Shown piece by piece: positions 9,648 through 46,080 of a DNA stretch of 64,000 nucleotides (position 1 is its first letter; the number at the start of each line of letters is the position of its first letter). A model generated the notes under the pieces. The model was not told the DNA's origin and ran no database searches. It was given only the letters and a program-made list of their open reading frames with translations. A program made the position numbers and the translations under genes. Source of the stretch: an uncultured Planctomycetales bacterium (lineage in GTDB: Bacteria; Omnitrophota; Gorgyraeia; Zapsychrales; Fredricksoniimonadaceae); contig CAZACW010000002.1 of assembly GCA_964483785.1 (NCBI GenBank), positions 16,666 through 80,665 on the forward strand. Reading direction: 5' to 3'.

Positions 9648-10205
9648 ATGAATCCTCCTCAAGACTCCTTAGACGAACGGGAATTTGAATTGGTCAATAT
9701 CGTAGGCGCCGAACTCGGTGCCAATCAACGGGTTTTGTCCAAGCAATTGGATATTTCCCTTGGCATGACCAATATGCTGATCCGCCGTTTGGTCTCCAAG
9801 GGCTATATCCGCATCCGGCAGTTAAACAAGAAAAAGACCCAGTATATCCTCACCCCCAAAGGCTTTGCCGAAAAATACCAAAAATCCATCCGTTATACCT
9901 TAAAAACCATCCGCTCCATCGGCCTGATCCGCAATCAGTTAAACATCGTCATCCAGCGTCTTTATCAGGACGGGGAAAGGGTCTTTTTTATCCTCGGCAG
10001 TTCAGACCTGGCGGAATTGGTGGAAATGTCCCTTAGACAGCCCCAATGGGAGGGCGTGCAATTTAGCCGCGTGGAGGCAATTTCCGGCCATCCCGAAGGG
10101 GTGATCTTAATTTGCAGGGAGCAGGTCGAGGCTGTACCGTCAACCCCGGGCCGCTATGTCGATTTACTCAAGGAGCTGGCCAGCCAAAACAGGGAAGGAA
10201 TATGA
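9648..10205 (+). CDS. Winged-helix (MarR-like) transcriptional regulator
   Basis: About 185-aa product. Its N-terminal LSKQLDISLGMTNMLIRRLVSKGYIRI segment has HTH/wing character. An alternative TTG start lies at 9636. Confidence 0.5.
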   Translation: MNPPQDSLDEREFELVNIVGAELGANQRVLSKQLDISLGMTNMLIRRLVSKGYIRIRQLNKKKTQYILTPKGFAEKYQKSIRYTLKTIRSIGLIRNQLNIVIQRLYQDGERVFFILGSSDLAELVEMSLRQPQWEGVQFSRVEAISGHPEGVILICREQVEAVPSTPGRYVDLLKELASQNREGI

Positions 10206-12274
10206 TGATGCCAAAATCCGTTCCGGTTTCCTTTGTCGATTTTTCGCACACCGGCAAGACCATTGACACCCGGTTTTTCCCGTTGGGTGTGGCCTATGTG
10301 GCGGCCTATGCCAAGGAGCTGTTTAAGGAGCTCATCGACGTGGCCATTTACAAATATCCCAATGAATATTCCGCTTATTTGGACCAGACCATCCCCCAGG
10401 TGGCCTGCTTTTCCAATTTTTCCTGGAATTTCCGGCTGGGCTATGAATACGCGCGCCAGATCAAATTAAAATCCCCGCAGTCGATCACGGTCTTCGGCGG
10501 CCCCAATTACGGCCACCTGCCCCAAGAGCAGGAACAATTCCTCAAAGACCATCCCTACATCGATTTTTACATCGTGGAAGAAGGCGAATTCACTTTCGCC
10601 GCCCTGCTTAAGGAATTGATCGCGCGTGATTTTAACATCGATGCGCTCCTGCAGGACCGCCCCGGCCTGCCGGGGATCCATTATTTCAAGAACGGCTCAT
10701 TTACGCGCAATGACACCCAGCCGCGCATTCAGGAGCTGTCCGTGATCCCCTCGCCCATCCTCAACGGCATGATGGACAAATTTATCGCTGAAGAGTATAT
10801 CCCCATGATCCAGACCACCCGGGGCTGTCCCTATTCCTGCACCTTCTGCCATGACGGCAATGTGTACCAGAATAAACTGAAGCGTTTCCCCACGTCGCGC
10901 TACCAGGAGGAGATTGAATATATCGCCCGGCGCACCAAGGTGCCGCATCTGATGATCACGGACTTGAATTTCGGGATCTTTGAGGAGGATTTTGAGACCG
11001 CCCAGTTTATCGCAGAGATCAAAAAGAAATACCAATGGCCGCAGACCGTGGATTTGACCGCGGCCAAGAACAACAAGGAGCGCATCGGCCGCATCGTCGA
11101 GCTTTTCGGCAACACCTATCTCATGGGCGCCTCGGTGCAGTCCACGGACCCCGAGGTCCTGACCGCCATCAAAAGGTCCAATCTGCCCTTTGAGGAATTG
11201 GTGAGGATGGCCAAGAAATCCGCCCAATTCGGGGGCAACAGCTATTCCGAGGTGATTCTCTGCCTGCCGGGCGATTCCAAAAGGGCACATTTTAAGTCGG
11301 TCCTGGATTTGATGGACGGGCACATGGATGAGGTGCGCATGTACCAGTTCATTTTGCTCGCCGGCACCGCCGGCGGCTCCAACGAGGCCAGGCTGAAATA
11401 CGGGTATAAGACCAAATGGCGGGCCTTGCCGCGCTGTTTCGGCAAATACAAGATCTTCGGCCGGGAATTTCCCATCGCGGAAATCCATGAGGTCTGCATC
11501 GAGCACAAGACCATGAGCCATCAGGATTATTTGGACTGCCGCAAATTAAACCTGATCGTCGAGATTTTCAACAACGGCAAGGTCTTCGGCGAATTGTTCA
11601 GGTTCTCCGATTATCTGGGCATGTCCCGGGCCACCATCATCCAGGAAATTTACAACCGCGCCGTGAAAGACCAGGGGGAGATGGGGAAAATTTTCAGGGA
11701 TTTCGAGGAGAGCGAGGAAAAGAGCTTTTTCCCGTCGCGCCAGGCCCTGGAAGATTTTATTGCTGTACCGGAAAATATCGACCGCTATTTAAGGGGCGAG
11801 ATCGGCATCAATCAGATCATGACCTTTCGCGGGGAGGCGCTGTTGAACCATTTTGACTATAACGCCCGGCTGATCTTTGATGTGGTGCGCGATGAGCTTA
11901 AAAAGACCAATCAGTGGGACGAGGTCAAGGCCCTGTATTTGGATGAGCTGTGCGCCTACATCCTGGCCTGCCGCGGCGATCTTTTGAGCATCGACAAGGA
12001 GATCGTGAAAACCTGCCATTTTGATTTCGTCAAACTGTACCTGGACAATTTCACGGCCAATCCGAAGGACGTGATGGTCCAGGAAGGCATCCAGATCATC
12101 ATCGGGCATTCGCCTGAGCGGCGCAGGGAAATCGAGGAGAATTTGAAATTATACGGGCGTTCCGGCGAGGGCCTGGGCCATTACATGCAGCGCGGGAATA
12201 TTTTCAGGCTTTACCGCGAGCCGCGCTACGCACACGCGCCCATGCTGAAGGCCCAAGGGGCCGAGGTCAATTAA
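10202..12274 (+). CDS. Cobalamin-binding (class B) radical-SAM enzyme, probable methyltransferase
   Basis: The N-terminal Rossmann-like B12-binding region is followed by a CxxxCxxC cluster (TTRGCPYSCTFCHDG). The product is about 690 aa. The start overlaps the regulator's stop. Confidence 0.7.
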   Translation: MMMPKSVPVSFVDFSHTGKTIDTRFFPLGVAYVAAYAKELFKELIDVAIYKYPNEYSAYLDQTIPQVACFSNFSWNFRLGYEYARQIKLKSPQSITVFGGPNYGHLPQEQEQFLKDHPYIDFYIVEEGEFTFAALLKELIARDFNIDALLQDRPGLPGIHYFKNGSFTRNDTQPRIQELSVIPSPILNGMMDKFIAEEYIPMIQTTRGCPYSCTFCHDGNVYQNKLKRFPTSRYQEEIEYIARRTKVPHLMITDLNFGIFEEDFETAQFIAEIKKKYQWPQTVDLTAAKNNKERIGRIVELFGNTYLMGASVQSTDPEVLTAIKRSNLPFEELVRMAKKSAQFGGNSYSEVILCLPGDSKRAHFKSVLDLMDGHMDEVRMYQFILLAGTAGGSNEARLKYGYKTKWRALPRCFGKYKIFGREFPIAEIHEVCIEHKTMSHQDYLDCRKLNLIVEIFNNGKVFGELFRFSDYLGMSRATIIQEIYNRAVKDQGEMGKIFRDFEESEEKSFFPSRQALEDFIAVPENIDRYLRGEIGINQIMTFRGEALLNHFDYNARLIFDVVRDELKKTNQWDEVKALYLDELCAYILACRGDLLSIDKEIVKTCHFDFVKLYLDNFTANPKDVMVQEGIQIIIGHSPERRREIEENLKLYGRSGEGLGHYMQRGNIFRLYREPRYAHAPMLKAQGAEVN

Positions 12275-13273
12275 ATGGGCCAAAACGTTTTAGTGACAGG
12301 CGGGGCAGGGTTTATCGGCAGTCATGTGGTGGACCGTCTCTTAAGCGGCGGGCACAAGGTCACAGTCATCGATAATCTCTCAACCGGCCGCTGGGCGAAT
12401 ATCGAGCATCATCAGGCCAATCCGGATTTGACCTTTATCGAGGCGGATATCGCTGACTTTAACGCCATCGAAGGGCATTTTAAGGGCCAGCAGGTCGTTT
12501 TTCATCTGGCGGCCCTGGCAGATATTGTGCCGTCGATCGTCAACCCCCGGGGATATTATGCCGCCAATGTTTTAGGCACCATGCATGTACTGGAAGCTTC
12601 CAGGCTCCATGGGGTGGGCAGGTTTGTTTATACAGCTTCTTCATCGTGCTACGGCATTCCGGCCAAGGAGCATTACCCCACGGCGGAAACAGCGCCCATC
12701 CACACGGAATATCCTTACGCGCTGACCAAATACTTAGGAGAAACAACGGCCTTTCATTGGGCCAAGGTGTACAAACTGCCGGTGGTTTCTTTAAGACTTT
12801 TCAATGTTTACGGCCCGCGTGCGCGCACCTCAGGCACCTACGGCGCGGTGTTCGGCGTATTCCTGACCCAAAAGCTCAACGCCAAACCCTATACGGTGGT
12901 CGGCGACGGCCAACAGACCCGTGATTTCATCTATGTCAGCGACGTGGCCGAGGCTTTTGTTGCCGCCGGATTTTCCGCGGTGCAGGGAGCAATTTTCAAC
13001 GTAGGCACGGGCAAGCCGCAAAGCATCAATCATTTGGTGTCCCTGCTGGGAGGCGCAAAGGTGCATATCCCCAAAAGGCCGGGCGAGCCGGAATGCACCT
13101 GGGCGGATATCCGCAAGATCCAGGCCCAACTGGGTTTCACCCCCAAGGTCTCATTTGAAGACGGGGTGCAGAAAATTTTGAAACACATCGACTATTGGCG
13201 CGAGGCCCCGGTTTGGACGCCGCAGAGCATTCAGGAAGCGACCCAGGACTGGTTTAAATACCTCGTCCGGTAA
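12275..13273 (+). CDS. NAD-dependent nucleotide-sugar epimerase/dehydratase (extended SDR)
   Basis: GGAGFIGS glycine-rich NAD motif at the N-terminus and a YxxxK catalytic region. The product is 332 aa. Confidence 0.8.
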   Translation: MGQNVLVTGGAGFIGSHVVDRLLSGGHKVTVIDNLSTGRWANIEHHQANPDLTFIEADIADFNAIEGHFKGQQVVFHLAALADIVPSIVNPRGYYAANVLGTMHVLEASRLHGVGRFVYTASSSCYGIPAKEHYPTAETAPIHTEYPYALTKYLGETTAFHWAKVYKLPVVSLRLFNVYGPRARTSGTYGAVFGVFLTQKLNAKPYTVVGDGQQTRDFIYVSDVAEAFVAAGFSAVQGAIFNVGTGKPQSINHLVSLLGGAKVHIPKRPGEPECTWADIRKIQAQLGFTPKVSFEDGVQKILKHIDYWREAPVWTPQSIQEATQDWFKYLVR

Positions 13274-13312
13274 GCGATGATTATGGGCATTTGTTTGGTT
13301 CTTTTTGCTTCT

Positions 13313-13408
13313 CATCGGGTGGCCGAGGGAGGGGTCTACCCGCCGCGCGCAGGCTTTTGCGAGCACGGCGGGGAAACCCGAGGCCAGGACCCGATGAGTT
13401 GCTGAACA
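13313..13408 (+). other. Intergenic stem-loop (CTCATCGGGT ... ACCCGATGAG) enclosing about 75 nt of GC-rich sequence
   Basis: A 10-bp perfect inverted repeat lies in the 166-nt gap between the two epimerase genes. Confidence 0.3.
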
Positions 13409-13439
13409 GGATCGACTAAGGAAAGGACAATACACCATC

Positions 13440-14465
13440 ATGAACAAGATCAAGACGGTTTTAGTGACAGGCGGGGCCGGGTACGTCGGAGCGGTGCTGG
13501 TGCCGAAGCTTTTGGACAAAGGGTACACGGTCAAGGTGCTGGATTTGTACACCTATGGCGAGGATATTTTCGATGAGATCAAGGACAGGTCCAAGTTGGT
13601 CGAAATCAAGGGCGATATCTGCGACCAGGCCCTGCTGCGTCAATCTTTGCAAGGAACTGATGCGGTCATCCATCTGGCCTGCATTTCCAATGATCCTTCC
13701 TTTGAATTGAACCCGGAATTAAGTTTGAAGGTCAATTATGAGGCCTTTGAGCCCTTGGTCAAGATCAGCCGGGAAAGCGGGGTGAAGCGCTTCATTTACG
13801 CTTCCACCTGCAGCGTCTACGGCGTCAGCGACGCGCCCGAGGTGACCGAAGACCATCCGCTTCTGCCTATTACGGATTACAACAAGTATAAGGGCCTCTG
13901 CGAACCGATCTTGGCCCGCTACCAGTCCCCGGATTTTACCACCATCACCATCCGGCCGGCCACGGTCTGCGGCTATTCGCCCCGTCAGCGCTTTGATCTG
14001 ACGGTCAATATTCTGACTAATCATGCCTATCATAACAACCGCATCAAGGTCTTTGGCGGCAAGCAGGAGCGCCCCAATATCCATATCGGCGATATCACCA
14101 ACCTTTATGTGCAATTGTTGGAACTGCCCGAGGCCAAGATCGCCGGCAAGATCTACAACGCCGGCTTTCAAAACCGCGCGGTGGCGGATATCGCCCTCAT
14201 CGTGCAGAAGATCATGGCCCAGGAATTTCCGCAGAGGCCCCAGGCCGTGATCGAGACCGTGCCTTCGGATGATATCCGCTCCTACCGGATCTCCTCGGAG
14301 AAGATCAAAAGGGAGCTGGGGTTTGTGCCCGCATTTACCATCGAGGACGCGGTGAAGGACCTGATCAAAGCGTTGAAGGCTGGAAAATACCAGGACCCCA
14401 TGAACAATCCGCGCTATTTCAACATCAAGATGCTTAAATCCATGGAAGCGCAGGCCCAGGTTTAA
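13440..14465 (+). CDS. NAD-dependent nucleotide-sugar epimerase/dehydratase (extended SDR)
   Basis: TGGAGYVG motif. The product is 341 aa. Confidence 0.8.
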   Translation: MNKIKTVLVTGGAGYVGAVLVPKLLDKGYTVKVLDLYTYGEDIFDEIKDRSKLVEIKGDICDQALLRQSLQGTDAVIHLACISNDPSFELNPELSLKVNYEAFEPLVKISRESGVKRFIYASTCSVYGVSDAPEVTEDHPLLPITDYNKYKGLCEPILARYQSPDFTTITIRPATVCGYSPRQRFDLTVNILTNHAYHNNRIKVFGGKQERPNIHIGDITNLYVQLLELPEAKIAGKIYNAGFQNRAVADIALIVQKIMAQEFPQRPQAVIETVPSDDIRSYRISSEKIKRELGFVPAFTIEDAVKDLIKALKAGKYQDPMNNPRYFNIKMLKSMEAQAQV

Positions 14466-14475
14466 AGGACCCTTT

Positions 14476-16011
14476 ATGGACGAGAAAATCAGCAGAAAAA
14501 TCCTGCCGCTCAAAGAGCTGGCCAAACGCATCGAGGACAATAAGGCCAAGGGCCGCAAGGTGGTGCAGTGCCACGGGGTTTTTGACATCGTGCATCTGGG
14601 CCATGTGCGCCATTTTAACATGGCCAAAAAAGAGGGGGATGTCCTTTTGGTCACCCTCACCGCCGACCGTTTTGTCAAGCGGGGGCCGGGCCGGCCGATC
14701 TTCAATGAGGCCCTGCGCGCCGAGCATTTGGCCTCCTTGGCCATGGTGGATTTTGTCGGCATCATCGAGTCGGCGACGGCCACGGAATGCATCAAGATCC
14801 TCAAGCCCAATTTTTACGCCAAGGGCGTTGAATACAAAAACCACAGCCAGGACATCACGGGCAAGATCTCCGAGGAAGAAGAGGCCATCCAGTCCGTCGG
14901 CGGCAAGGTCGTCTACACCGATGATATCACCTTCAGCTCTTCCCAGATCATCAACTCGTACCTGGACGTGTTTCCTCAGCGGACCGTGCGCTATCTGCAG
15001 GCCATTGAGAAGCGTTTCCCCATTGAAACGATCATCGCCTCGATCGAGAAGATCAAAAGACTCAAGGCCCTGGTGATCGGGGATGCCATTATCGATGAGT
15101 ACCATTACTGCGTGCCCATGGGCAAGTCCTCCAAGGAACATTTGGTGGTCAACCGCTACACCTCCGAAGAGATGTTTGCCGGCGGAAGTCTGGCCACGGC
15201 CAATAATGTGGCCAGCATCTGCGGCCAGGTGGATTTGGTCACCATCCTGGGCCGGGAGAACACCAAGGAAGATTTCATCCGCAGCCGCCTGGCGCCCAAT
15301 GTCAAGCCGCGCTTCTTCTATCGGCCGGACACCAATACCATCATCAAGCGCCGTTTTGTCGGCGAGAACGCCAACCGCAAGCTCTTTGAAATCTGTTACA
15401 TGAAGGACAATGATATTGCCAGGAGGGAAGAATCCAATATCGCCCGGCACTTGGACAAGGTGATCGCGGATTATGATGTGGTGATCGTCTCGGATTTCGG
15501 CCACGGCCTTTTGACTAAGAATCTGATTGACCTGATCTGCGCCAAGTCCAAATACCTGGCGGTGAATGCCCAGACCAACAGCGCCAATATCGGCTTTAAT
15601 ATGGTCACCAAATATCCGCGGGCCAACTGCGTCTGCATCGACGAGCTGGAACTGCGCTTTGCCGCGCATGATAAATTCAACGATCTGCGCGAGCTGGCCA
15701 AGACCGTTTACAGCCAAATCGGCTGCCAATACATCATTGCCACCCGGGGCTCCTACGGGTCCCTGAGCTATTCCCAAGAGCATGGTTTCCATGAAACGCC
15801 GGCCTTTTCCTACCGTGTGGTGGATGCCATCGGCGCGGGGGACGCCTTTTTCGCCTTTGTGGCCCCGTGTTTTGCCAGCGGCATGCCGCAGGAACTGGTG
15901 TCCTTTATCGGCAACGCGGTGGGGTCCTTGGCTGTGCAGATCGTCTGCAACCGCGAACCGGTGAAGACCGTGGATTTGATCAAATTTATGACGAGATTGC
16001 TGAAATGCTAA
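14476..16011 (+). CDS. Bifunctional sugar-phosphate nucleotidyltransferase plus PfkB-family sugar kinase. It is HldE/RfaE-like but with the domain order reversed.
   Basis: The N-terminal HGVFDIVHLGH motif is the HxGH cytidylyl/adenylyltransferase motif. The C-terminus has the PfkB kinase GAGD motif (DAIGAGDAF). Confidence 0.65.
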   Translation: MDEKISRKILPLKELAKRIEDNKAKGRKVVQCHGVFDIVHLGHVRHFNMAKKEGDVLLVTLTADRFVKRGPGRPIFNEALRAEHLASLAMVDFVGIIESATATECIKILKPNFYAKGVEYKNHSQDITGKISEEEEAIQSVGGKVVYTDDITFSSSQIINSYLDVFPQRTVRYLQAIEKRFPIETIIASIEKIKRLKALVIGDAIIDEYHYCVPMGKSSKEHLVVNRYTSEEMFAGGSLATANNVASICGQVDLVTILGRENTKEDFIRSRLAPNVKPRFFYRPDTNTIIKRRFVGENANRKLFEICYMKDNDIARREESNIARHLDKVIADYDVVIVSDFGHGLLTKNLIDLICAKSKYLAVNAQTNSANIGFNMVTKYPRANCVCIDELELRFAAHDKFNDLRELAKTVYSQIGCQYIIATRGSYGSLSYSQEHGFHETPAFSYRVVDAIGAGDAFFAFVAPCFASGMPQELVSFIGNAVGSLAVQIVCNREPVKTVDLIKFMTRLLKC

Positions 16012-17132
16012 ACAAAATCAAAATTCCCTATACGCATTTGGGGGCCCAGCACGCTAGGATCAAGCAGAGGCTGATGGCGGCCGTGGAAGAGGTCTTGGAA
16101 AGCGGCAAATTCATCCTGGGCCCGCCGGTCGAGGCCTTTGAGGCCCGCTTCGCGTCATTGTGCGGCAGGAAATTTGCCGTCGGCGTCGGCAACGGCACGG
16201 ACGCCCTGGTCCTGGCCTTAAAAATTTTAGGCATCGGGCCCGGCGATGAAGTGATCACCGTGGCCAATACCTTTGTTTCAACGGTCAGCAGTATTGTGAT
16301 GGCAGGGGCAAGGCCGGTATTCGTCGATGTCCGGGACGATTACAATATCGACCCTGGTCTCGTCGAGAAGGCCATCACCCCTCGGACCAAGGCCATTTTA
16401 CCCGTGCATTTGACCGGCCGGCCGGCGGACATGGACCCGCTCATGGCCCTGGCCAGGCAGTACGGCTTGAAGGTGGTCGAAGACTGTGCCCAGGCCGTCG
16501 GCGCCCAGTATAAGGGCCAGAAGGTTGGCAGTTTCAGCGATATCGCGTGCTTTAGCCTTCATCCTTTGAAAATCCTCAATGCCTGCGGCGACGGCGGGGT
16601 GATGGTCACGGATAATCCGCAATATGAGGCTGCATGCAGGGTCCTGCGCGATAACGGCATGAAGGACCGCGGTGAATGCGCGGCCTTTTCCAGCAATTCC
16701 AGGCTGGACTCCATCCAGGCCGCCATTTTGCTGGTGAAAATGGATTATATCGAGGCCTGGACCCAGAAGAGAATCGCCAACGCGCAATTCTACCAGCAGG
16801 CCTTGGCCAAGATGGAGCATATCCATTGTCCGGCTGACCAGCCTTACGTAAAATCCGTATACTCGTCCTTTGTGATCCAGGCCAAGCAGCGCGATCAGCT
16901 TAAAAGTTTTCTCGAGGAGAAGGGGATCGCCACCAAGATCCATTATCCCATCCCTGTGCATTTACAGCCTGCGGCGCAAAGCCTTGGCTACAGGCAGGGG
17001 GATTTGCCGGTGACGGAAAAACAAGCCCGGCAAATCCTAAGCCTTCCGGTTTATCCGGAGTTGACCCAGGAAGAACTTAAAGAAATTGTCCGGTTATTGG
17101 GGGCATTTGATCTGGAGAAAGTCAACGCATGA
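16005..17132 (+). CDS. DegT/DnrJ/EryC1/StrS-family PLP-dependent sugar aminotransferase
   Basis: GxGDEVI motif, a conserved lysine region and a length of about 375 aa. The start overlaps the previous gene. Confidence 0.85.
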   Translation: MLNKIKIPYTHLGAQHARIKQRLMAAVEEVLESGKFILGPPVEAFEARFASLCGRKFAVGVGNGTDALVLALKILGIGPGDEVITVANTFVSTVSSIVMAGARPVFVDVRDDYNIDPGLVEKAITPRTKAILPVHLTGRPADMDPLMALARQYGLKVVEDCAQAVGAQYKGQKVGSFSDIACFSLHPLKILNACGDGGVMVTDNPQYEAACRVLRDNGMKDRGECAAFSSNSRLDSIQAAILLVKMDYIEAWTQKRIANAQFYQQALAKMEHIHCPADQPYVKSVYSSFVIQAKQRDQLKSFLEEKGIATKIHYPIPVHLQPAAQSLGYRQGDLPVTEKQARQILSLPVYPELTQEELKEIVRLLGAFDLEKVNA

Positions 17133-18232: not shown

Positions 18233-18250
18233 TTGTTGGGAGCCAAGGCC

Positions 18251-20129: not shown

Positions 20130-20132
20130 GTC

Positions 20133-21071: not shown

Positions 21072-21084
21072 GTCAACATAGGTT

Positions 21085-21875: not shown

Positions 21876-21884
21876 GAGGAGATT

Positions 21885-32917: not shown

Positions 32918-32929
32918 GAAGGGTCGACG

Positions 32930-34702: not shown

Positions 34703-34728
34703 TATGCATTCGAGCGTAAGGAGTGAAG

Positions 34729-36841: not shown

Positions 36842-37239
36842 CCAAGTGGATGTGGATGTGCCAGCATCACGAGCATTTGGTCTGCGGCCGCAAGGTGGAC
36901 ATAGGCGCCTTCACCTATATCAATGCCAAGCACGGGGTGCATTTGGGGGATGAGGTGCAAATCGGGTCTCACTGTTCCTTGTATTCCGTCTCATCTATCG
37001 ACGGCAAGAAGGGGCCCATTACAATCGGCAAAAATTCCAGGATCGGGTCGCACTGCACCGTGATGCCGGGGATCACCATCGGGGACAATGCGGTCATCGG
37101 CGCCCATTCCTTTGTGAATAAAGACATCCCCTCCAATGCAACCGCATGGGGCGTGCCGGCCAGGGTCCAAAATAAAAAGCAGGGCAAGGCCAAGAACCGT
37201 GACGGACGGCACAAAGCCAAGGACCGTGAAAGAGACTGA
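36796..37239 (+). CDS. Hexapeptide-repeat (left-handed beta-helix) sugar N-acetyltransferase (PglD/LegH-like)
   Basis: Tandem [LIV]G-x-x-x-x hexapeptide repeats (IGSHCSL...IGKNSRIGSHCTV...IGDNAVIGAHS). The start codon is uncertain between 36796 and 36853. Confidence 0.65.
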   Translation: MPSPWVPLRFNKNNLTKWMWMCQHHEHLVCGRKVDIGAFTYINAKHGVHLGDEVQIGSHCSLYSVSSIDGKKGPITIGKNSRIGSHCTVMPGITIGDNAVIGAHSFVNKDIPSNATAWGVPARVQNKKQGKAKNRDGRHKAKDRERD

Positions 37240-38318: not shown

Positions 38319-39315
38319 GGTCCTGATCATTGCCGAGGCCGGCGTTAATCACAATGGGTCACTGAAATCCGCCTTGAAATTGGTGGACGCGGCGGCCATG
38401 GCCGGTGCGGATGCCGTCAAATTCCAGACCTTTGAGGCCCATGCCGTTGTTTCCAAATTCGCGCCGAAGGCCCGCTACCAGATTCAAGCCACAGGCAAGG
38501 AGGGCAATCAGCTGCAGATGATCCAACAACTGCAGCTGGGTCCCGAGGCGCATAAGATCCTGCAGGCCCATTGCCGCCGAAGGAAAATCATGTTTCTTTC
38601 CACGCCTTTTGATGCGGCCAGCATTGATCTGTTAAACGGGCTGGGCCTAAAGATCTTTAAAATCCCTTCAGGAGAAATCACCAATCTTCCCTATTTGCGC
38701 AAAATCGGGGCCTTAAGGAAAAAGATCATCCTCTCGACGGGAATGGCGGATCTGCGGGAAATCCGGGAAGCGCTCAGGATATTGACGGCGGCCGGCACCA
38801 GGAAAGCGCAGATCACCCTGCTGCATTGCAACAGCGCCTATCCATCGCCATTTAAGGATGCGAATCTTTTGGCCATCCCCCGGATGAAATCAGCCCTGGG
38901 CATGGAGATCGGCTATTCTGATCATACCTTGGGGATCGAAGCGGCCGCGGCAGCCGTGGCCCTGGGCGCTGTCATTATCGAAAAGCACCTGACCCTTGAT
39001 AAGCGCTTACCGGGTCCAGACCACAAGGCCAGCCTTGACCCGGCTGAGTTGAGGGCCTTGGTCAAAGCTGTCCGGAATGTCGAATCCGCGCTGGGCTCCG
39101 GCATCAAAAGGCCTTCACCGTCGGAAACGGCCAATATCACCCATGTCCGCAAGAGCATCATTGCCTCCAGGGACATCGGCAGGGGGGAACGGTTCAATGA
39201 AGAAAACCTGACGGTCAAAAGGCCAGGCACCGGCCTTAGCCCCATGCAATGGGACAGGGTCATAGGCCGCAAGGCCGTCAAAGCGTTTCATCAAGATGAA
39301 TTGATCAAGCTATAA
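38311..39315 (+). CDS. neuB: Nonulosonic-acid synthase (NeuB/LegI/PseI family) with a C-terminal SAF domain
   Basis: The N-terminal KVLIIAEAGVNHNGSL segment matches the family signature. The C-terminal antifreeze-like domain is present. Confidence 0.85.
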   Translation: MSKVLIIAEAGVNHNGSLKSALKLVDAAAMAGADAVKFQTFEAHAVVSKFAPKARYQIQATGKEGNQLQMIQQLQLGPEAHKILQAHCRRRKIMFLSTPFDAASIDLLNGLGLKIFKIPSGEITNLPYLRKIGALRKKIILSTGMADLREIREALRILTAAGTRKAQITLLHCNSAYPSPFKDANLLAIPRMKSALGMEIGYSDHTLGIEAAAAAVALGAVIIEKHLTLDKRLPGPDHKASLDPAELRALVKAVRNVESALGSGIKRPSPSETANITHVRKSIIASRDIGRGERFNEENLTVKRPGTGLSPMQWDRVIGRKAVKAFHQDELIKL

Positions 39316-39319
39316 GCCT

Positions 39320-40507
39320 ATGCACAAAAGAACTATCGCGGTTGTCACCGGTTCCAGGGCCGATTACGGCCATCTGTATTGGCTGTTGCGTGCCATTGAG
39401 GAAGATCCGCGTCTCAAACTGAAGATTTTGGTGACTGGACCGCATCTGTCCAGTACCTTTGGCTCGACGTGGAAACAGATCACCCGGGATGGCTTCAAGA
39501 TTGCCGCCAAAATTCCTGTACTAAGCCGGGATAATTCCATGGCCTCCACAGCCGCTGCTGTCGGCCGCGGATGCATCGGCTTCAGCCGTGTCCTTGACAA
39601 GGACCGGCCGGACATGCTGGTGGTCTTGGGCGACCGGTTTGAAATTTTGGCGGCTGTTGTTGCGGCGTATATCCTGAACATCCCCATTGTCCATCTGCAT
39701 GGGGGGGAAGCCACACAGGGCGTCATGGACGAAGGGATCCGTCATGCCATCACCAAGATGTCTTCCCTGCACGGAACCGCGACTAAGACCTACAGGCATA
39801 GGGTCATTCAAATGGGGGAAGATCCACGACGGGTTTTTAACCTGGGGGCCGCAGGCTTAGACCATATCTATCGGATGGATTTGCTCAGCAAGGATGCGTT
39901 GTACCAAGGTTTGGGCCTGGATCTGCGGGAAAAAACCCTGCTTGTCACCTTCCATCCCATGACACGGGAGCGTTCTTCCACTGCCAAGCAGGTCCAACAA
40001 TTGCTTTTGGCCGTGGCCTCCAGCGGCTGCCAGGCCGTGTTCACCAAGGCCAATGCAGACCCTGAGGGCCTGATCATCAACCGTGCCCTGGCCCTCTTTT
40101 GCCGGAGGGACCCATCACGGTATAAATTCATTGATAATATGGGTCAGCTTCTCTATTATAGTGCGCTTAAACATATGGATGCCATGGTGGGCAATTCTTC
40201 CAGCGGCATGGTGGAAGCCCCTTCCTTTCATATGCCGGTGGTCAATATCGGTGACCGTCAGGACGGCAGGATCAAGGCCGCCAATGTGCTCGATGTGGAT
40301 TGCGTGAGTGCACAGATCACAAGGGCCATCCGACTGGCTTTTAGCCCAAGGTTCAGGCGTTCATTAAAATCCCTAAAAAATCCTTATGACCGCTTTCGGG
40401 ACGGCAAAACCAGCCTGCGCCTTAAGGAAATATTGCGCAAGCTCAGCCTGGATGAGAGCTTGATCAAGAAAAAATTTTATGCCATAAAGAATTTCAGCGT
40501 CGATTGA
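39320..40507 (+). CDS. neuC: UDP-N-acetylglucosamine 2-epimerase, hydrolysing type (NeuC/LegG)
   Basis: The N-terminal IAVVTGSRADYG segment is characteristic of the NeuC family. The product is 395 aa. Confidence 0.8.
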   Translation: MHKRTIAVVTGSRADYGHLYWLLRAIEEDPRLKLKILVTGPHLSSTFGSTWKQITRDGFKIAAKIPVLSRDNSMASTAAAVGRGCIGFSRVLDKDRPDMLVVLGDRFEILAAVVAAYILNIPIVHLHGGEATQGVMDEGIRHAITKMSSLHGTATKTYRHRVIQMGEDPRRVFNLGAAGLDHIYRMDLLSKDALYQGLGLDLREKTLLVTFHPMTRERSSTAKQVQQLLLAVASSGCQAVFTKANADPEGLIINRALALFCRRDPSRYKFIDNMGQLLYYSALKHMDAMVGNSSSGMVEAPSFHMPVVNIGDRQDGRIKAANVLDVDCVSAQITRAIRLAFSPRFRRSLKSLKNPYDRFRDGKTSLRLKEILRKLSLDESLIKKKFYAIKNFSVD

Positions 40508-40512
40508 GGAGC

Positions 40513-41388
40513 ATGATGAAAAACATCAGGATCATTCCGCGTCTGGACATCAAGGGGCCCAATTTGGTCAAGGGCATCCATTTGGAAGGCCTGCGTGTCT
40601 TGGGCCGGCCCCAGGACTTTGCCCGGCATTATTATGAGGCCGGCGCGGATGAATTGATTTATATGGACGTGGTGGCCAGCCTTTATAACCGCAACAGCCT
40701 GCATGATATCATCACCAAGACCGCCAAGGAAATTTTCATTCCCTTGACAGTGGGAGGAGGATTGAGAACCATCGAGGATATCCGCCGGGTCTTAAGGGCC
40801 GGTGCGGACAAGGTTTCATTAAACACAGCGGCCATAAGTCATCCGGATTTTATCCGTGAGGCCGCGCGCATGTTCGGCTCCTCCACCATTGTCGTGGCCA
40901 TTGAGGCCATCCGTCAGCCCGATGGCCGGTACCTGGCGTATACAGACAATGCCCGGGAATACACAGGGGTGGAAGTGCTGGCCTGGGCCGGGAAGGTCCA
41001 GGAGCTGGGCGCCGGTGAAATCCTTTTGACCTCGGTGGACCGTGAAGGCACGGGCACAGGATATGACCTGGAGCTGATCAGGTCCGTGGCTGAAGCTGTC
41101 TCCATTCCGGTCATTGCCTCCGGCGGGCCAGGGCAATTGAACGATATCCAGAAGGCCATCCTGCAGGGAAAGGCGGATGCCGTGGCGGTTGCCTCCATGC
41201 TCCATTACGAAACCATCAAGCATCTGCGGGCGGATTTGGATTCCTATCAAGAGGGCAATGTGGAATTTTTAAAAAGCGGCCGGGAATTCACCAAATGCCG
41301 GCCCTGCTCCATTTTGCAGATCAAGCAATATTTAAACCAGCAGGATATTCCCTGCCGGTATCAGCCTAAGGAAGCTGTTCATGTTTGA
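40513..41388 (+). CDS. HisF-like cyclase subunit (WbuZ-type, amidine formation on N-acetyl sugars)
   Basis: TIM-barrel HisF motifs ([20 protein letters not shown]). It is located next to the HisH-like and WbuX-like genes. Confidence 0.75.
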
Positions 41389-42064
41389 AGCGGACAAGCA
41401 TAAGGTCGCCATCGTTGATTACGGGCTGGGCAATTTGTTCAGCGTCCAGTATGCCTGCCGTGCGGTCGGTCTGGAGTGCATCATCACCCATGACAGGGAA
41501 CTGATCCAAAGGTCCGCAGGCATCATCCTTCCGGGGGTCGGGGCCTTTGGAGATGCCATGGCCAATTTGAAGAAACTGGATTTGGTCGGCGTGCTCAAGG
41601 ATTGCGTGCACATGCACAAGCCCTTTTTCGGCATCTGTTTGGGCATGCAGTTATTGCTTTCCCAAAGTGAGGAATTCGGGATTCATCCGGGGCTGGACAT
41701 CATCCGCGGCAAGGTGATCAGGTTTGACCAGGGTCGAGACCAGCGGGCTGTCAAGATCCCTCAAGTGGGGTGGAACCGCATCCGCATCAATCCCGGCCAT
41801 CCCGGGGCCAAGGAAGGACTGCTCAAGGGAATACACGATGAGGAGTTTATGTATTTTGTCCATTCTTATTATGCCGTCCCGGAAGATGAAAATTTGGTCC
41901 TGACTAAGACCTCGTACGAAGGCATTGCGTATTGTTCCTCCTTCCTGAAAGATTCGGTCTTGGCCGTGCAATTTCATCCGGAAAAGAGCGGGTCCGAGGG
42001 GTTAAAATTTTATCAAAATTGGGCCCATCTGGTCCATGCCGGCAAGGAGCTGGTCAACCCATGA
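41381..42064 (+). CDS. HisH-like glutamine amidotransferase subunit (WbuY-type)
   Basis: Class I GATase with the catalytic GICLGMQ cysteine motif and a C-terminal HPE triad. Confidence 0.8.
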   Translation: MFEADKHKVAIVDYGLGNLFSVQYACRAVGLECIITHDRELIQRSAGIILPGVGAFGDAMANLKKLDLVGVLKDCVHMHKPFFGICLGMQLLLSQSEEFGIHPGLDIIRGKVIRFDQGRDQRAVKIPQVGWNRIRINPGHPGAKEGLLKGIHDEEFMYFVHSYYAVPEDENLVLTKTSYEGIAYCSSFLKDSVLAVQFHPEKSGSEGLKFYQNWAHLVHAGKELVNP

Positions 42065-43269
42065 CAACAGCATTGGAAGTCAAATACGGCCTGCCGGCGA
42101 CGGTGGTTTTTTGCAAGCACTGCGTGATGTCCAACCAGCGGCCGACCTCGGCGGTGGAATTCAAGCACACGATCAACAGCCGCAAGAACACCCTGCATAT
42201 CCATGAAGACGGGATATGTGATGCCTGCTCTTATGCAAAAGAGAAGCTTAAGATCGACTGGAAAAAGCGCGAGGAAGAGCTGCTGCGGCTGCTGGACAAA
42301 TACCGCCGCAAGGATGGGCATTATGACTGCCTTGTGCCCGGCAGCGGCGGCAAGGACAGCGCCTATCAGGCCCATGTGCTCAAATACAAGTACGGGATGC
42401 ATCCTTTGACCGTCACCTGGTCGCCCCTGATGTATACGGATTACGGCTATAAGAATTTCAGGAATTGGCTGGATATCGGCGGTTTTGACAATATCAGCTT
42501 TTACCGCAACGGCAAGGTGATGAAATTATTGACAAGGCTTGGCATCGAAAATCTTTTGCATCCTTTTCAGACCTTTATTTTGGGGCAGAAAAACCTGGGC
42601 CCCAAACTGGCTGCCCAATTCGGCATCCCGCTGGTGTTTTACGGGGAGTGCGAGGCTGAATACGGCAATCCCATTGCGGACAACACCCGCTCCTTGAGGG
42701 ACAAATCCTACCATACCTTCAAAAACATCGATGACGTTTACCTGGGAGGCATTTCCGTCAGGGAGTTGAAGGAGCGCCACCACATCGACATGGAAGAGCT
42801 GATGTGCTTTCTGCCGGCGGACGCGGCCCAGCTGGAAAAAGCGGCCGTGGAGGTCCATTATTTGGGCTATTACCTGAAATGGACGCCGGAGGAGGTCTAT
42901 TATTATGCCGTGGAAAATACCGGATTCCAGGCGCGGCCTTTCCGGTCCCAGGGCACCTACAGCAAATACAACAGCATTGATGACAAAATCGATGATCTGC
43001 ACTACTATACCTTATACATCAAATTTGGGCTTGGCCGGGCCACCTATGACGCTTCCCAGGAAATCCGCAACAACCACATCACCCGTGAAGAAGGGGTGGC
43101 CCTGGTCAAGAAATTCGACGGTGAATTTCCGGACAGATATTTCCGCGAGGTCATGGAGTATATCGGCATGAAGCCGGAAAAGTTCATGGAGCTCTGCGAC
43201 CAGTTCCGCTCGCCGCATCTCTGGGAGCAGGTTGACGGTCAATGGAAATTACGTTACACTGTTTGGTAA
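42061..43269 (+). CDS. N-acetyl sugar amidotransferase (WbuX/PseA-like PP-loop ATPase)
   Basis: PP-loop SGGKDS motif and a length of about 400 aa. Its stop overlaps the HisH-like gene. Confidence 0.75.
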   Translation: MTTALEVKYGLPATVVFCKHCVMSNQRPTSAVEFKHTINSRKNTLHIHEDGICDACSYAKEKLKIDWKKREEELLRLLDKYRRKDGHYDCLVPGSGGKDSAYQAHVLKYKYGMHPLTVTWSPLMYTDYGYKNFRNWLDIGGFDNISFYRNGKVMKLLTRLGIENLLHPFQTFILGQKNLGPKLAAQFGIPLVFYGECEAEYGNPIADNTRSLRDKSYHTFKNIDDVYLGGISVRELKERHHIDMEELMCFLPADAAQLEKAAVEVHYLGYYLKWTPEEVYYYAVENTGFQARPFRSQGTYSKYNSIDDKIDDLHYYTLYIKFGLGRATYDASQEIRNNHITREEGVALVKKFDGEFPDRYFREVMEYIGMKPEKFMELCDQFRSPHLWEQVDGQWKLRYTVW

Positions 43270-43284
43270 GATGAGGAGGGGACC

Positions 43285-43458
43285 ATGGAAGAACAATTGC
43301 TTAAAGGTAATTTCAAGGTCAAACATCCCGTGAAGCAGAAGCCCAAGAAGGACGCTCCGACCTTTTTGGAAGAATACAAGAAAAAGGCCATGGGCTCGAT
43401 CGGAGGCAGCATGGTCTACATGGAGCGCGGCCAGATGACCTGGGACGGAGACCAATAG
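43285..43458 (+). CDS. 57-aa small protein (MEEQLLKGNFKVKHPVKQKPKKDAPTFLEEYKKKAMGSIGGSMVYMERGQMTWDGDQ)
   Basis: A perfect SD (GAGGAGGGG) lies 5 nt upstream of the ATG. The ORF sits in the 192-nt gap of an otherwise overlapping gene array and is below the ORF-track cutoff. Confidence 0.5.
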   Translation: MEEQLLKGNFKVKHPVKQKPKKDAPTFLEEYKKKAMGSIGGSMVYMERGQMTWDGDQ

Positions 43459-43461
43459 CCC

Positions 43462-44484
43462 ATGAAAGCCCAGGCCGTTGGCCCTTTTGAGCGCGTTGTT
43501 GAAGAAATAGCCCAGGTGGGGTTCAAGCACCACCGCCAGACGCTGCTGGAGCATGCCCTTATCAACGCGCCGCAGGCTAAGCAATCCATCAAGGACCTGC
43601 CTGACTTAAAAGGCCCGAAGGCCCGATCAGCTATCGTCATCAGCGCCGGACCCAGCGTCCACCGTCAACACTCTTTAAAGCGCATCAAGGACTTAAACTA
43701 TCCGGGCACGCTGATCTGTGTCGACGGAGCTTTTATCGCGGCCTTGAAAGCCGGCCTCATCCCGGATTTTGTCATGGCCTTGGACCCCCATCGCCGCAGG
43801 CCGGTGCGCTGGTTCGGGGACCATGATTTTGAGAAAAATACGGCGGATGATGATTATTTTGCCCGCCAGGATTTGGACGTCGAATTTCGCAAAAATACCA
43901 TCGCCCAGAACAAGCTCCACATTGAGCTGGTGAATACTTACGGCCCGAAAACCAAGGCCATTGTGGCTTCCTGCGCAGCGGCCAACGTCGTCGGGCGCAT
44001 CCAAGAAAGCGGCATGGACGCCTACTGGTGGAACCCCTTGGTGGATGATCCGCACACCCCGGGAAGCATCACCCGCGCCATGTATGATATCAACCGCCTG
44101 CCCTGCCTGAATACCGGAGGCAATGTCGGCACCGCGGCCTGGGTCTTTGCGGATTCTTTCTTAAAAATCCCTGAGATCGCCCTGGTCGGCATGGATTTCG
44201 GCTATTACGGGGACCTGCCCTTCGAGAAGACCCAGACCTTTTATGAGCTGCACCAGTATCTGCAGAACGCGGAATCCGTGGAGTCCTTGTTCGTGGAATA
44301 TGACTTTCCGTTGACCGGCGAAACATTTTATACGGACCCGACGTATTATTGGTACCGGAAAAATTTTCTGGAACTTTTTTTGCTGGCGCGCGGCCGCACG
44401 TATAATTGCACCGAAGGCGGCACCCTCTTTCATGAGAAGATGCCCTGCCTTTCCCTTGACGATTTTATCCAACGCCACCTTTAA
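43462..44484 (+). CDS. DUF115 (MptE-like) domain protein, a candidate Maf-type nonulosonic-acid transferase
   Basis: The pattern AIVISAGPSV...LICVDGAF...DFVMALDPH matches the DUF115 core shared by Campylobacter motility-accessory-factor (Maf) proteins. Confidence 0.45.
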   Translation: MKAQAVGPFERVVEEIAQVGFKHHRQTLLEHALINAPQAKQSIKDLPDLKGPKARSAIVISAGPSVHRQHSLKRIKDLNYPGTLICVDGAFIAALKAGLIPDFVMALDPHRRRPVRWFGDHDFEKNTADDDYFARQDLDVEFRKNTIAQNKLHIELVNTYGPKTKAIVASCAAANVVGRIQESGMDAYWWNPLVDDPHTPGSITRAMYDINRLPCLNTGGNVGTAAWVFADSFLKIPEIALVGMDFGYYGDLPFEKTQTFYELHQYLQNAESVESLFVEYDFPLTGETFYTDPTYYWYRKNFLELFLLARGRTYNCTEGGTLFHEKMPCLSLDDFIQRHL

Positions 44485-44496
44485 CCCAGGGGACCC

Positions 44497-46080
44497 ATGG
44501 CCAAAATCCTGATGATCAATCCAGTGGTGAGGGAAGAAGACGATCCCAAGCATATCCCCTACGGCATTGCCCTGCTGGCGGCCATTGCCGTCGAAAAAGG
44601 GCATCTCGTCCAGATTTACGACGAGAACGCCTGGCGCAAAGGCCTGGAGGTGGTGGAGCAGGTCTGCCGGGCCGATGATTGGGACGTGATCGCCATCGGC
44701 GGATTGACGACAACCTACGGTTCCATCAAGAAAATCCTTCAAATATGCCGCAAGGTCTGTCCCCAGGCCTTCATCGTGGCCGGCGGCGGATTCTTGACCA
44801 GCATGCCCAAGGAAATGCTCTCCTGGCTGCCGGAAATCGATATCGGCATCATGGGAGAGGCTTTTGCCACATGGCCTGATATCCTTGAAAAGATAGACCG
44901 CAAGGACCTTGATTTCTCCAAGACCTTAGGGGTCTGTTTCCGCGCTCAAGACGGCAAGGTCACCATCACCAACGTGCGGTCCAATATCCATGACCTGGAT
45001 GTCCTGCCGTATCCGGCCTGGGACCTGCTGCCCTTGGAGATATACTTTAAAAATTCCAGCACCACCTACTCCGAAGCCGGCTTTCTGGCCAAGCGGCGCA
45101 TCGATGTGATGGGCTCCTTAGGCTGCAGCCTGATCTGCAAATTCTGCTGGCATTTGGGTACCACCGGCGACATGGTGGTGGAAAAAGACGAGAAGGGCGA
45201 GAATGATGTCCGTTTCACCTACGGCCGCAATATCCGCTATCACAGCCCGCGCTACATTGTCAACATGGTCAAGACCCTCAGGGACAAATACCAGGTGGAT
45301 TTTGTCAGTTTTATCGATGAAAATTTGATGACTATGGACGTGGCCAGCGGCCGCACCTGGCTTAAAGAACTGTGCGCCTTGTGGATCGAGGAAGGGCTGC
45401 AGCCGACGTCCCGGCGCGACGGTGTCCCGGACAATGAGAACAAGGGGGGCGTGTTCTGGGCCGGGACCAGCCATGCCAGCCTTTCCAACAAGGAAATCCT
45501 GCAGATCATGTACAAGGCCGGCTGTTCCCATCTGGTCTACGGCATTGAGTCCTTTGATCCGGTGATCCTCAAAAATTTGGGCAAGGGCGTCAACCAAAAC
45601 CATAATTTGAACGCCCCGCGGATCTGCATGGAAACCGGCATCATCCCCATCCCCAACATCATCATTGGCTTCCCCCTGGAAACATTCCAAAGCGTGCGCA
45701 CCACCATCGAATGCCTGATCAAACTGGGCATTCACTGCAAGCCGCATTTTGCCACACCCTACCCAGGCTCCGAGTGGTATTATGCCTACAAGGAGTCGAT
45801 CCTGGAGCAATACAACGGCGATCTGGAGAAGTTCATCATGGACTTGGGCGATGCCTCCAAAATTTCAGCTGTGATTTCCCATCAATTCTCGCCCATGCAG
45901 CTTTTGGGCCTGCAGCAGATTGTGATGCAGCGGGACCTGAGGCTGTTGGCATTGGCGGAAAAGCATTGGGGCAAGGCTGATGAGCTGGTGCGGCCCCTGG
46001 CCGTGCCCCGGGAGTCCTTCAACATTGTCAAGGCCAAGGTCAAGGCGCCGATGGAAGAAGAGACCAAGGCTTCCTTATAA
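44497..46080 (+). CDS. Cobalamin-binding (class B) radical-SAM enzyme (second copy)
   Basis: An N-terminal B12-binding Rossmann region is followed by a CxxxCxxC cluster (GCSLICKFCWH). The product is 527 aa. Confidence 0.7.
   Translation: MAKILMINPVVREEDDPKHIPYGIALLAAIAVEKGHLVQIYDENAWRKGLEVVEQVCRADDWDVIAIGGLTTTYGSIKKILQICRKVCPQAFIVAGGGFLTSMPKEMLSWLPEIDIGIMGEAFATWPDILEKIDRKDLDFSKTLGVCFRAQDGKVTITNVRSNIHDLDVLPYPAWDLLPLEIYFKNSSTTYSEAGFLAKRRIDVMGSLGCSLICKFCWHLGTTGDMVVEKDEKGENDVRFTYGRNIRYHSPRYIVNMVKTLRDKYQVDFVSFIDENLMTMDVASGRTWLKELCALWIEEGLQPTSRRDGVPDNENKGGVFWAGTSHASLSNKEILQIMYKAGCSHLVYGIESFDPVILKNLGKGVNQNHNLNAPRICMETGIIPIPNIIIGFPLETFQSVRTTIECLIKLGIHCKPHFATPYPGSEWYYAYKESILEQYNGDLEKFIMDLGDASKISAVISHQFSPMQLLGLQQIVMQRDLRLLALAEKHWGKADELVRPLAVPRESFNIVKAKVKAPMEEETKASL

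Follow-up and report, generated by a model that had tools for sequence, protein, structure and literature searches.

What do three radical S-adenosylmethionine (SAM) enzymes contribute to a single island of sugar biosynthesis genes? The question is raised by a stretch of 64,000 nucleotides (hereafter, at its full length, the window) of contig CAZACW010000002.1 (positions 16,666 to 80,665, assembly GCA_964483785.1) from an uncultured bacterium affiliated with Omnitrophota in GTDB. Three plus-strand genes with intact CxxxCxxC cores, designated here rSAM-1 (10202-12274), rSAM-2 (25832-26836) and rSAM-3 (44497-46080), had been noticed in a preliminary description of this DNA and are confirmed. They belong to a surface-glycan island that extends co-directionally over about 54 kb, from a promoter-like site near 9600 to at least 63445, and is made of separable modules: a six-frame list of open reading frames (ORFs) and Pfam scans of 62 ORFs revealed a nearly unbroken array of plus-strand genes between 9636 and 63445, with 48516-50108 as the sole minus-strand break. 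In our reading, to which we assign a probability of roughly 0.6, module A makes a tailored aminosugar with the participation of rSAM-1 and rSAM-2, and module B a legionaminic-acid-type sugar that is modified by a small cassette containing rSAM-3. The same gene combinations were found again in unrelated genomes, and the clustering of radical-SAM genes with sugar genes is therefore not due to chance. We observed directly how the domains are arranged, which folds are related, and that cluster cysteines and gene neighbourhoods are conserved; every substrate and reaction proposed below is deduced from these observations.

Of all parts of the island, the cassette around rSAM-3 is of greatest interest and lends itself best to testing. 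It begins with a gene for a protein of 57 amino acids (43285-43458, plus strand; GAGGAGG Shine-Dalgarno sequence before the ATG), absent from the preliminary description, continues with a gene for a small MptE-like (DUF115) protein of 340 amino acids (43462-44484, plus strand; Pfam MptE-like, 65.7 bits) and ends with rSAM-3 itself. A PtmF-like GFO oxidoreductase, a cytidine monophosphate (CMP)-nonulosonate synthetase and a PtmA-like SDR are encoded next (46081-48519, plus strand). A scan of GTDB species genomes yielded 80 rSAM-3 loci (denominators below are loci with enough flanking sequence), among which the order small ORF, MptE-like gene, rSAM-3 and CMP-synthetase recurs. Directly upstream of rSAM-3, 65 of 71 loci have the MptE-like gene, including all 41 of the main clade, and this gene is itself preceded by the 57-amino-acid ORF in 59 of 70. 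Of 76 loci, 58 encode a CMP-synthetase homologue at some position, 17 of them directly downstream, and NeuB is encoded within 10 kb of the cassette in 27 of 35. The 57-amino-acid protein, the MptE-like protein and rSAM-3 constitute an undescribed three-gene unit near sialic-acid-like sugar genes in more than ten phyla.

Homologues of rSAM-3 in the main clade show 62-86% identity and those of a second clade 50-58%; the main clade comprises proteins from Leptospira, Omnitrophota, Planctomycetota, Elusimicrobia, Bdellovibrionota, Gammaproteobacteria and others. The genes neighbouring rSAM-3 are far less conserved (CMP-synthetase about 34%, NeuB 36-47% identity). Cultured carriers of the cassette include Methylobacter tundripaludum SV96, Thalassotalea, Colwellia, Leptospira ryugenii and Planctobacterium marinum. 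In Leptospira it is found within a polysaccharide locus, in Thalassotalea it adjoins a full-length Maf and FleQ, in Methylobacter a full-length Maf, and in Planctobacterium flagellin and Maf. The cassette and CMP-synthetase of Candidatus Uabimicrobium stand alone, with no other sugar genes within 10 kb.

The MptE-like protein is related to the Maf flagellin glycosyltransferases by its Pfam assignment, but the match is confined to its N-terminal half, where the best stretch covers 79 of 171 profile positions. A profile of the family found archaeal MptE pyrophosphokinase in the PDB at an expect value (E) of 4e-10 and Maf at E 0.01, and with the PseD model, which has a cutoff of 670, the protein reaches 49.7 bits. 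Mafs are recognised by a full MptE-like domain, a length of at least 600 amino acids and flanking domains, a combination that the 340-residue protein lacks; genuine Mafs of 836-838 amino acids lie beside the cassette in two loci (L043 and L045; labels with L and P denote loci and proteins from the homologue scans). Since full-length Mafs adjoin the cassette, the MptE-like protein is not the flagellin transferase. Mafs flank the cassette in Gammaproteobacteria, together with FleQ or flagellin, whereas none is encoded in the window.

In the 57-amino-acid protein, K7, G8, G40, G41, S42 and W53 are invariant, and searches of Pfam, NCBIfam and the PDB returned no match to it. We rejected a function as LysW-type amino-group carrier, given an acidic tail after W-D-G that varies in length and no accompanying ATP-grasp ligase; a double-glycine-leader peptide is likewise unsupported, with neither peptidase nor exporter alongside. 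In full-text literature searches, no paper connected radical SAM enzymes to flagellin glycosylation or to nonulosonic acids, and those for MptE or DUF115 alongside radical SAM brought up nothing of relevance.

rSAM-3 has the architecture of class-B radical SAM enzymes. The N-terminal B12-binding domain previously proposed for it and for rSAM-1 was detected in both by Pfam (PF02310; 48.3 bits in rSAM-3 and 35.6 bits in rSAM-1, cutoff 32.1), as was the Radical_SAM domain (PF04055; 47.1 and 36.2 bits, cutoff 29.5). Misalignment of the cysteine triads with the radical-SAM core had been named beforehand as a refuting outcome; the triads of rSAM-1, rSAM-2 and rSAM-3 do fit the core: Pfam scores are above cutoff, and the cysteines are conserved without exception in 117, 117 and 119 homologues, respectively. 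The cluster motif of rSAM-3 is CSLICKFC, and a fourth invariant cysteine is found at C343. Its AlphaFold2 model (predicted local distance difference test score, pLDDT, 91.3) has an N-terminal domain of five strands and five helices, as described for cobalamin-binding class I enzymes (PMC12931638). Cobalamin is bound base-off by class-B enzymes, without a conserved ligand motif (PMC12931638), so that a lack of cobalamin-binding residues, suggested earlier as counter-evidence, is a weak test; in rSAM-3 no supporting residue comparable to W75 of rSAM-1 or W76 of TokK was identified. Its two-domain fold is shared with TsrM, OxsB, MgmA/QCMT and AprD4 at template-modelling (TM) scores of 0.53-0.72 and sequence identities of 14-17%; OxsB, MgmA, CysS and TokK are further fold matches. 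Only rSAM-3 has about 35 extra residues immediately after the cluster motif, along with C343, and for none of TsrM, OxsB, MgmA/QCMT and AprD4 is a partnership with an MptE-like and a 57-amino-acid gene known. As to the initial assignment of rSAM-3 to GenK/GenD1/Fom3-type methyltransferases, no close characterised relative of it was found among PDB and NCBIfam entries, a comparison that did not include these three proteins; AprD4 is among its best fold matches, and it may be no methylase at all.

The cassette is embedded in module B (34723-48519), whose first part (34723-43269, plus strand) encodes LegB, LegC, an acetyltransferase, a CBS-NTP transferase, NeuB, NeuC and a HisF/HisH/WbuX amidotransferase. 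NCBIfam scores are 475 bits for NeuB_NnaB (cutoff 400) and 441 for NeuC_NnaA (cutoff 236); LegB (454 bits, cutoff 475) and LegC (386, cutoff 420) are both slightly under their cutoffs, and the CMP-synthetase reaches 131 bits against a PseF cutoff of 206. The module ends with the PtmF-like oxidoreductase, CMP-synthetase and PtmA-like SDR, in this particular order. From its gene content, module B is predicted to be a legionaminic-acid-type pathway. LegB-, LegC-, NeuB- and NeuC-type genes and a CBS-NTP transferase are shared with the leg/ptm locus of Campylobacter jejuni, as is the order of the last three genes. We know of no radical SAM enzyme in the Campylobacter jejuni CMP-legionaminic acid locus and, more generally, of no radical SAM or cobalamin-dependent step in nonulosonic-acid biosynthesis. 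We infer that the rSAM-3 cassette tailors the legionaminic-acid-type sugar.

rSAM-1 is the class-B enzyme of module A. Its ORF opens at a TTG codon at 10112, and the ATG at 10202 is provided with a GGAAGGA Shine-Dalgarno sequence. The cluster motif is CPYSCTFC; C209, C213 and C216 are invariant in 117 homologues and stand in exact register with the cluster cysteines of TokK and CysS, within an identical RGCPYSC context. A sequence search of the PDB returned TokK (E 2e-44) and CysS (E 1e-38) as sole matches, over about 340 aligned residues, and the top NCBIfam family is KedN5 (NF033712; 183.3 bits over residues 56-434 of the 720-amino-acid ORF, short of the full-length cutoff of 700 bits). The likeness to GenK, GenD1 and Fom3 put forward earlier gives way to another affiliation: among PDB and NCBIfam entries, a comparison that did not include these three proteins, the nearest characterised relatives appear to be TokK, CysS and KedN5. 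The B12 Rossmann domain, the radical-SAM barrel and a large C-terminal domain follow in the same order in rSAM-1, TokK and CysS. In TokK, Trp76 lies 3.8 Å under the cobalt, and Trp76 and Trp215 are common to TokK, ThnK and CysS, but not to TsrM, Fom3, PhpK and GenK (bioRxiv 10.1101/2021.07.10.451909). W75 of rSAM-1 aligns with TokK W76 and is present in 117 of 117 homologues, which is supportive of cobalamin binding.

Beyond this point the resemblance fades, and several observations weigh against a full transfer of function. The active-site residue Trp215 of TokK corresponds to D218 in rSAM-1, a position that is acidic (Asp/Glu) in 94% of homologues, and Arg280, which anchors the substrate in TokK, corresponds to D284, where homologues vary; the C-terminal 285 residues cannot be aligned to TokK or CysS, and more distant relatives occupy heterogeneous contexts. 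With Trp215, Arg280 and the C-terminal alignment all lost, neither iterative methylation nor substrate type is transferable to rSAM-1. TokK/ThnK, CysS and KedN5 are iterative C-methylases of non-sugar substrates (carbapenem, cystobactamid), TokK and CysS acting on pantetheinylated carbapenam or aminobenzoate, whereas rSAM-1 sits among sugar biosynthesis genes. Within the TokK/CysS branch it seems, on present alignments, to form a clade of its own whose substrate pocket differs; we infer that it is a cobalamin-dependent C-methylase. The family counts at least 696 proteins at E < 1e-10, many of them full-length with 40-50% identity, from sources including Magnetococcales, Rhodospirillaceae, Sulfuricellaceae, Nitrosomonadaceae and Elusimicrobia. 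A metagenome scan gave mostly paralogues with 25-42% identity in mixed contexts, and useful synteny in few loci.

rSAM-2 (Radical_SAM 44.6 bits, cutoff 29.5; SPASM 32.2 bits, cutoff 21.5) carries the cluster motif CNAECIMC and seven cysteines in its C-terminal third. Only C43, C47 and C50 and the C-terminal C241, C259, C308 and C311 are invariant in 117 homologues. The latter follow the pattern C-x12-G-x4-C ... C-x2-C, the first half of the SPASM motif; the full pattern of seven cysteines (CX9-15GX4C ... CX2CX5CX3C ... C) is not found in the rSAM-2 family, where CX5CX3C is missing. The twitch domain is a shortened form of the SPASM domain with a single Cys-ligated auxiliary cluster, and BtrN has one Cys4 auxiliary cluster and catalyses a two-electron alcohol oxidation (PMC9012708). 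The AlphaFold2 model of rSAM-2 (pLDDT 89.9) has BtrN as top fold match (4m7t, E 7.6e-13, target TM 0.73), followed by CteB, MoaA, BlsE, SuiB, SkfB, DesII and anSME. Given only four invariant C-terminal cysteines and BtrN as the best fold match, rSAM-2 is most consistent with a twitch enzyme with one predicted auxiliary cluster rather than a full SPASM protein. Of the earlier SPASM/twitch proposal, the auxiliary-cluster domain and the BtrN analogy are borne out.

BtrN, the founding twitch enzyme, is the 2-deoxy-scyllo-inosamine dehydrogenase of butirosin biosynthesis and is paired with the aminotransferase BtrS; a DegT-family aminotransferase is a conserved neighbour of rSAM-2 in the same manner. 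The sequence match between rSAM-2 and BtrN is limited to the radical-SAM core (E 4e-4), and the proteins differ in length (334 against about 250 amino acids), in the C-terminal domain, labelled SPASM by Pfam in rSAM-2, and in the DUF6016 partner, which is sometimes fused to rSAM-2 (as in the protein P0255). Its substrate would presumably be a nucleotide sugar rather than an aminocyclitol. Two points speak against a close functional match: the likeness is one of fold only, at 16% identity, and MoaA, CteB, BlsE and DesII have fold scores close to that of BtrN. By analogy, rSAM-2 is probably an anaerobic sugar dehydrogenase that supplies the DegT aminotransferase. None of rSAM-1, rSAM-2 and rSAM-3 has a characterised homologue; all three fall into known classes of the superfamily and outside its characterised families.

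The genes surrounding rSAM-1 and rSAM-2 point to aminosugar biosynthesis. Module A spans 9636-34702. Its part 1 (12275-19324, plus strand) encodes two SDR dehydratase/epimerases, an HldE-like protein, two DegT aminotransferases and an APH-family kinase, and part 2 (19209-25835, plus strand) a split transketolase, a methyltransferase, a zinc-dependent alcohol dehydrogenase, a further DegT aminotransferase, DUF6016, which has a weak cupin match, and a TylC3-type C-methyltransferase. The HldE-like bifunctional protein (14476-16011) begins with an adenylyltransferase-like nucleotidyltransferase domain followed by a PfkB kinase domain, an order reversed with respect to HldE; it scores 168 bits against an HldE cutoff of 521, and the arrangement is kept in locus L001 at 68% identity. 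Part 3 (within 26752-34702, plus strand) comprises an SDR, a methyltransferase, a sulfotransferase, an adenosine phosphosulfate (APS) kinase, a CysQ-like phosphatase, a TIGR04372 glycosyltransferase and an MsbA-like ABC exporter. Sulfotransferase, APS kinase and CysQ-like phosphatase are consecutive (28816-31613), a row from which a sulfated glycan is predicted; ATP sulfurylase and sulfotransferase genes also occur in related loci (L006). Module A holds three DegT aminotransferases, two methyltransferases and the split transketolase in total. The TylC3-like C-methyltransferase noted previously is real (24582-25835; Methyltransf_13 and Methyltransf_14), and the count of about five ordinary methyltransferases was slightly generous, with two in the span of the three radical SAM genes (at 21177 and 27623) and two downstream (at 56453 and, weakly, at 61016).

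Module A is widespread across many environmental lineages. In L001 a block orthologous to part 1 (41-78% identity, most genes 57-78%) adjoins the rSAM-1 orthologue. In L005, L006 and L007, rSAM-2 is accompanied by the split transketolase, the methyltransferase at 21177, the DegT aminotransferase at 22936 (57-62% identity), DUF6016 and the TIGR04372 glycosyltransferase. Both L005 and L106 keep this glycosyltransferase and the ABC exporter together with rSAM-2; L007 has the glycosyltransferase, with no match to the ABC exporter. A single run in L106 unites HldE-like, epimerase, APH kinase, split transketolase, two DegT and methyltransferase genes with an rSAM-1-like gene, rSAM-2, the glycosyltransferase and the ABC exporter. 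In L167, which contains an rSAM-1 relative of 82% identity, rSAM-2, the C-methyltransferase, the ABC exporter and a Wzy_C-like gene are found within 10 kb. rSAM-1 and rSAM-2 thus belong to one conserved aminosugar module.

The preliminary description had placed all three enzymes in one sugar pathway of exceptional radical chemistry. Each of them is embedded in sugar genes, but they belong to two separate modules: in one Rhodospirillales genome the rSAM-3 cassette lies 1.5 Mb from the rSAM-2 module, and the rSAM-1/rSAM-2 and rSAM-3 modules therefore represent separate pathways. In L108 module A genes are interleaved with NeuB, NeuC, LegB and LegC, so that module A might share with module B the glycan, or even the sugar, that it tailors. 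For clusters of this type such an abundance of radical chemistry is typical rather than extreme, since as many as seven radical SAM genes occur in related loci: in L005 (GCA_974320455.1, approximately 900-15200) seven are found in 15 kb of one sugar cluster, three of them with B12 domains and one as a DUF6016-rSAM-SPASM fusion.

These data suggest the following scenario. The product of module A would be an aminosugar, possibly one of higher carbon number, that is activated by a nucleotide and heavily tailored, made by means of the HldE-like kinase/nucleotidyltransferase, split transketolase, dehydratase/epimerases, DegT aminotransferases, O/N- and C-methyltransferases and sulfation genes. rSAM-1, as a cobalamin methylase of TokK/CysS type, would transfer one or more methyl groups onto an unactivated carbon. 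The BtrN-like rSAM-2 would convert a secondary alcohol into a ketone without oxygen or nicotinamide adenine dinucleotide, and the ketone would then be aminated by the conserved neighbouring DegT enzyme, while the glycosyltransferase and ABC exporter would complete the pathway. Module B would supply a nonulosonic acid of legionaminic-acid type that bears an acetamidino group and is activated by CMP. The cassette inserted in it, with a presumably nucleotide-binding MptE-like member, would further alter the nine-carbon sugar, or the CMP ester of that sugar, by radical chemistry, most likely through C-methylation that depends on cobalamin. Genes for flagellin, a full-length Maf, Wzx/Wzy and an initiating transferase are all missing from the window, which speaks against this scenario.

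C-methylation is the most likely reaction of rSAM-3, and an AprD4-, HpnJ- or OxsB-like reaction is its serious rival. According to the latter, which we regard as unlikely on balance, the enzyme would either work independently of cobalamin as AprD4 does, or catalyse a cobalamin-dependent rearrangement or cyclisation like OxsB, HpnJ or BchE; it would deoxygenate or rearrange the nonulosonic acid, possibly after phosphorylation of a hydroxyl by the MptE-like protein, whose profile is nearer to the archaeal pyrophosphokinase than to Maf. AprD4, a diol dehydratase, provides both the highest target-normalised TM score (0.71-0.72) and the only PDB sequence match of rSAM-3, and the top NCBIfam families are HpnJ and BchE, neither of which are methylases; all this counts against methylation. 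Moreover, AprD4 and ArsL possess similar N-terminal domains and bind no cobalamin, and AprD4 shows up in similarity networks for radical SAM enzymes dependent on B12 though it is cobalamin-free (PMC12931638). On the other hand, the B12-binding domain of rSAM-3 scores well over its cutoff, TsrM is the first fold match by Foldseek E-value (1.9e-21), the AprD4 sequence match is restricted to residues 319-428 in the C-terminal part of the barrel, and methylases make up most of the characterised class-B enzymes (PMC12931638).

A doubtful alternative concerns the target of the cassette, which might act on the 57-amino-acid protein as peptide substrate or carrier and not on a free sugar: the MptE-like protein would attach the CMP-activated ulosonic acid to Ser42, and either the peptide or the sugar tethered to it would be altered by rSAM-3. 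The frequent co-inheritance of the small ORF and its invariant G40-G41-S42 and W53 fit such a role, as do matches of rSAM-3 to C-methylase families of ribosomally synthesised and post-translationally modified peptides (TIGR03975, 71 bits; ApyD, 66 bits), the coverage by Pfam MptE-like of the core domain of Mafs, which glycosylate Ser/Thr, and the solitary cassette of Candidatus Uabimicrobium. Against it stand the lack of a peptidase, exporter or leader-recognition protein accompanying the cassette, its position among sugar-biosynthesis genes in most loci, the variable tail after W-D-G, unlike that of LysW-type carriers, and the marginal similarity of the MptE-like protein to Maf. The most specific version, a three-protein machine in which a 'mini-Maf' places the CMP-activated nine-carbon sugar on Ser42 and rSAM-3 tailors the tethered sugar, is improbable; if true, it would introduce a carrier-protein logic new to sugar biosynthesis. 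It is equally improbable that module A is a secondary-metabolite cluster for a secreted small molecule of aminoglycoside or lincosamide kind. The aminoglycoside likeness remarked on earlier is justified with respect to the chemical logic of module A, in which a radical dehydrogenase is combined with DegT, and the APH-family kinase, C-methyltransferase, class-B enzymes and ABC exporter would suit such a cluster too. Lincosamide octose assembly likewise resembles sugar building by transketolase/transaldolase, isomerase, kinase and nucleotidyltransferase. By its identity, however, the cluster is a surface-glycan locus: module A is contiguous and co-directional with the nonulosonic-acid and KdsB-type pathways and is interleaved with the nonulosonic-acid genes in L108, a Wzy_C-like gene is present in L167 and a TIGR04326 surface-carbohydrate protein in the window, 2-deoxy-scyllo-inosose synthase, resistance gene and pathway regulator are lacking, and the module is widespread in environmental lineages.

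Flagella, lipopolysaccharides and capsules carry nonulosonic acids (sialic, legionaminic and pseudaminic acids), which influence immune recognition and phage attachment. The proposed modification of a legionaminic-acid-type sugar by rSAM-3 predicts an undescribed, probably C-alkylated, nine-carbon sugar, and the tight conservation of the cassette across many phyla, with cultured carriers, makes this directly testable. The rSAM-1/rSAM-2 module hints at hypermodified aminosugars in environmental bacteria, and offers untapped class-B enzymes for carbohydrate C-H methylation.

At the head of the island a promoter-like site (9599-9626, plus strand; TTGACA-16-TATAAT, 12 of 12 positions of the sigma-70 consensus, a consensus match alone) precedes the co-directional array. 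The first gene (9636-10205, plus strand) encodes a protein of 189 amino acids with a Pfam HTH_24 match of 27 bits, which accompanies these clusters. In L001 a copy with 53% identity (8747-9271) lies shortly upstream of the rSAM-1 orthologue, with an SIS gene between them, and homologues are found in 17 of the 80 rSAM-3 loci; the protein heads both rSAM-1 and rSAM-3 gene sets. Its relative in L005 also bears Methyltransf_14 and C2185-like_N signatures, and the protein may be more than a regulator.

The MetH gene mentioned in the preliminary description as lying upstream of rSAM-1 is real (3283-6996, minus strand, all five domains). Its adjacency is absent in the two rSAM-1 relatives examined: MetH is not near the relative of 64% or that of 82% identity, and we rejected it as a functional partner. 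In L167, genes for cobalamin-salvage CobU and a CobC-like phosphatase (1-710) are situated 9-10 kb from the 82% identical rSAM-1 homologue.

Downstream of the cassette, the region 50175-63445 encodes large proteins without family match and a second ulosonic-acid module (56453-63445). The latter contains a KdsB-type CMP-Kdo (3-deoxy-D-manno-octulosonate) synthetase, which with 247 bits is above its cutoff, along with a class I/II aminotransferase, two GFO oxidoreductases, two methyltransferases, an SIS isomerase and a transaldolase/FSA protein, which suggests a modified, possibly aminated, octulosonic acid as product. Four proteins of 459-729 amino acids (48516-50108, minus strand; 50175-52364; 54757-56418; 7874-9253, minus strand) gave no usable Pfam or NCBIfam match at relaxed thresholds, the single match among them having E 0.04; these may include the island's missing transferases or polymerases.

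No tRNA was found in the window, and an Rfam scan of the whole window detected no riboswitch or other RNA. Between DUF6159 and MetH lies a stretch of about 1.2 kb (2090-3283) with a low guanine-plus-cytosine fraction (about 0.44 versus 0.54 elsewhere); it contains two ORFs (101 and 123 amino acids) without Pfam match, and has neither a tRNA nor an Rfam match. A perfect palindrome of 27 bp, CCATCACAACCCCCGGGGTTGTGATGG, is present in six copies (9273-9299, 9545-9571, 21085-21111, 21115-21141, 52313-52339 and 52341-52367), where none is expected by chance. The copies are sited intergenically or at gene ends and include two tandem pairs, and one of them scores as a terminator with a 13-bp stem; the element looks like a repeat of the repetitive extragenic palindromic type.

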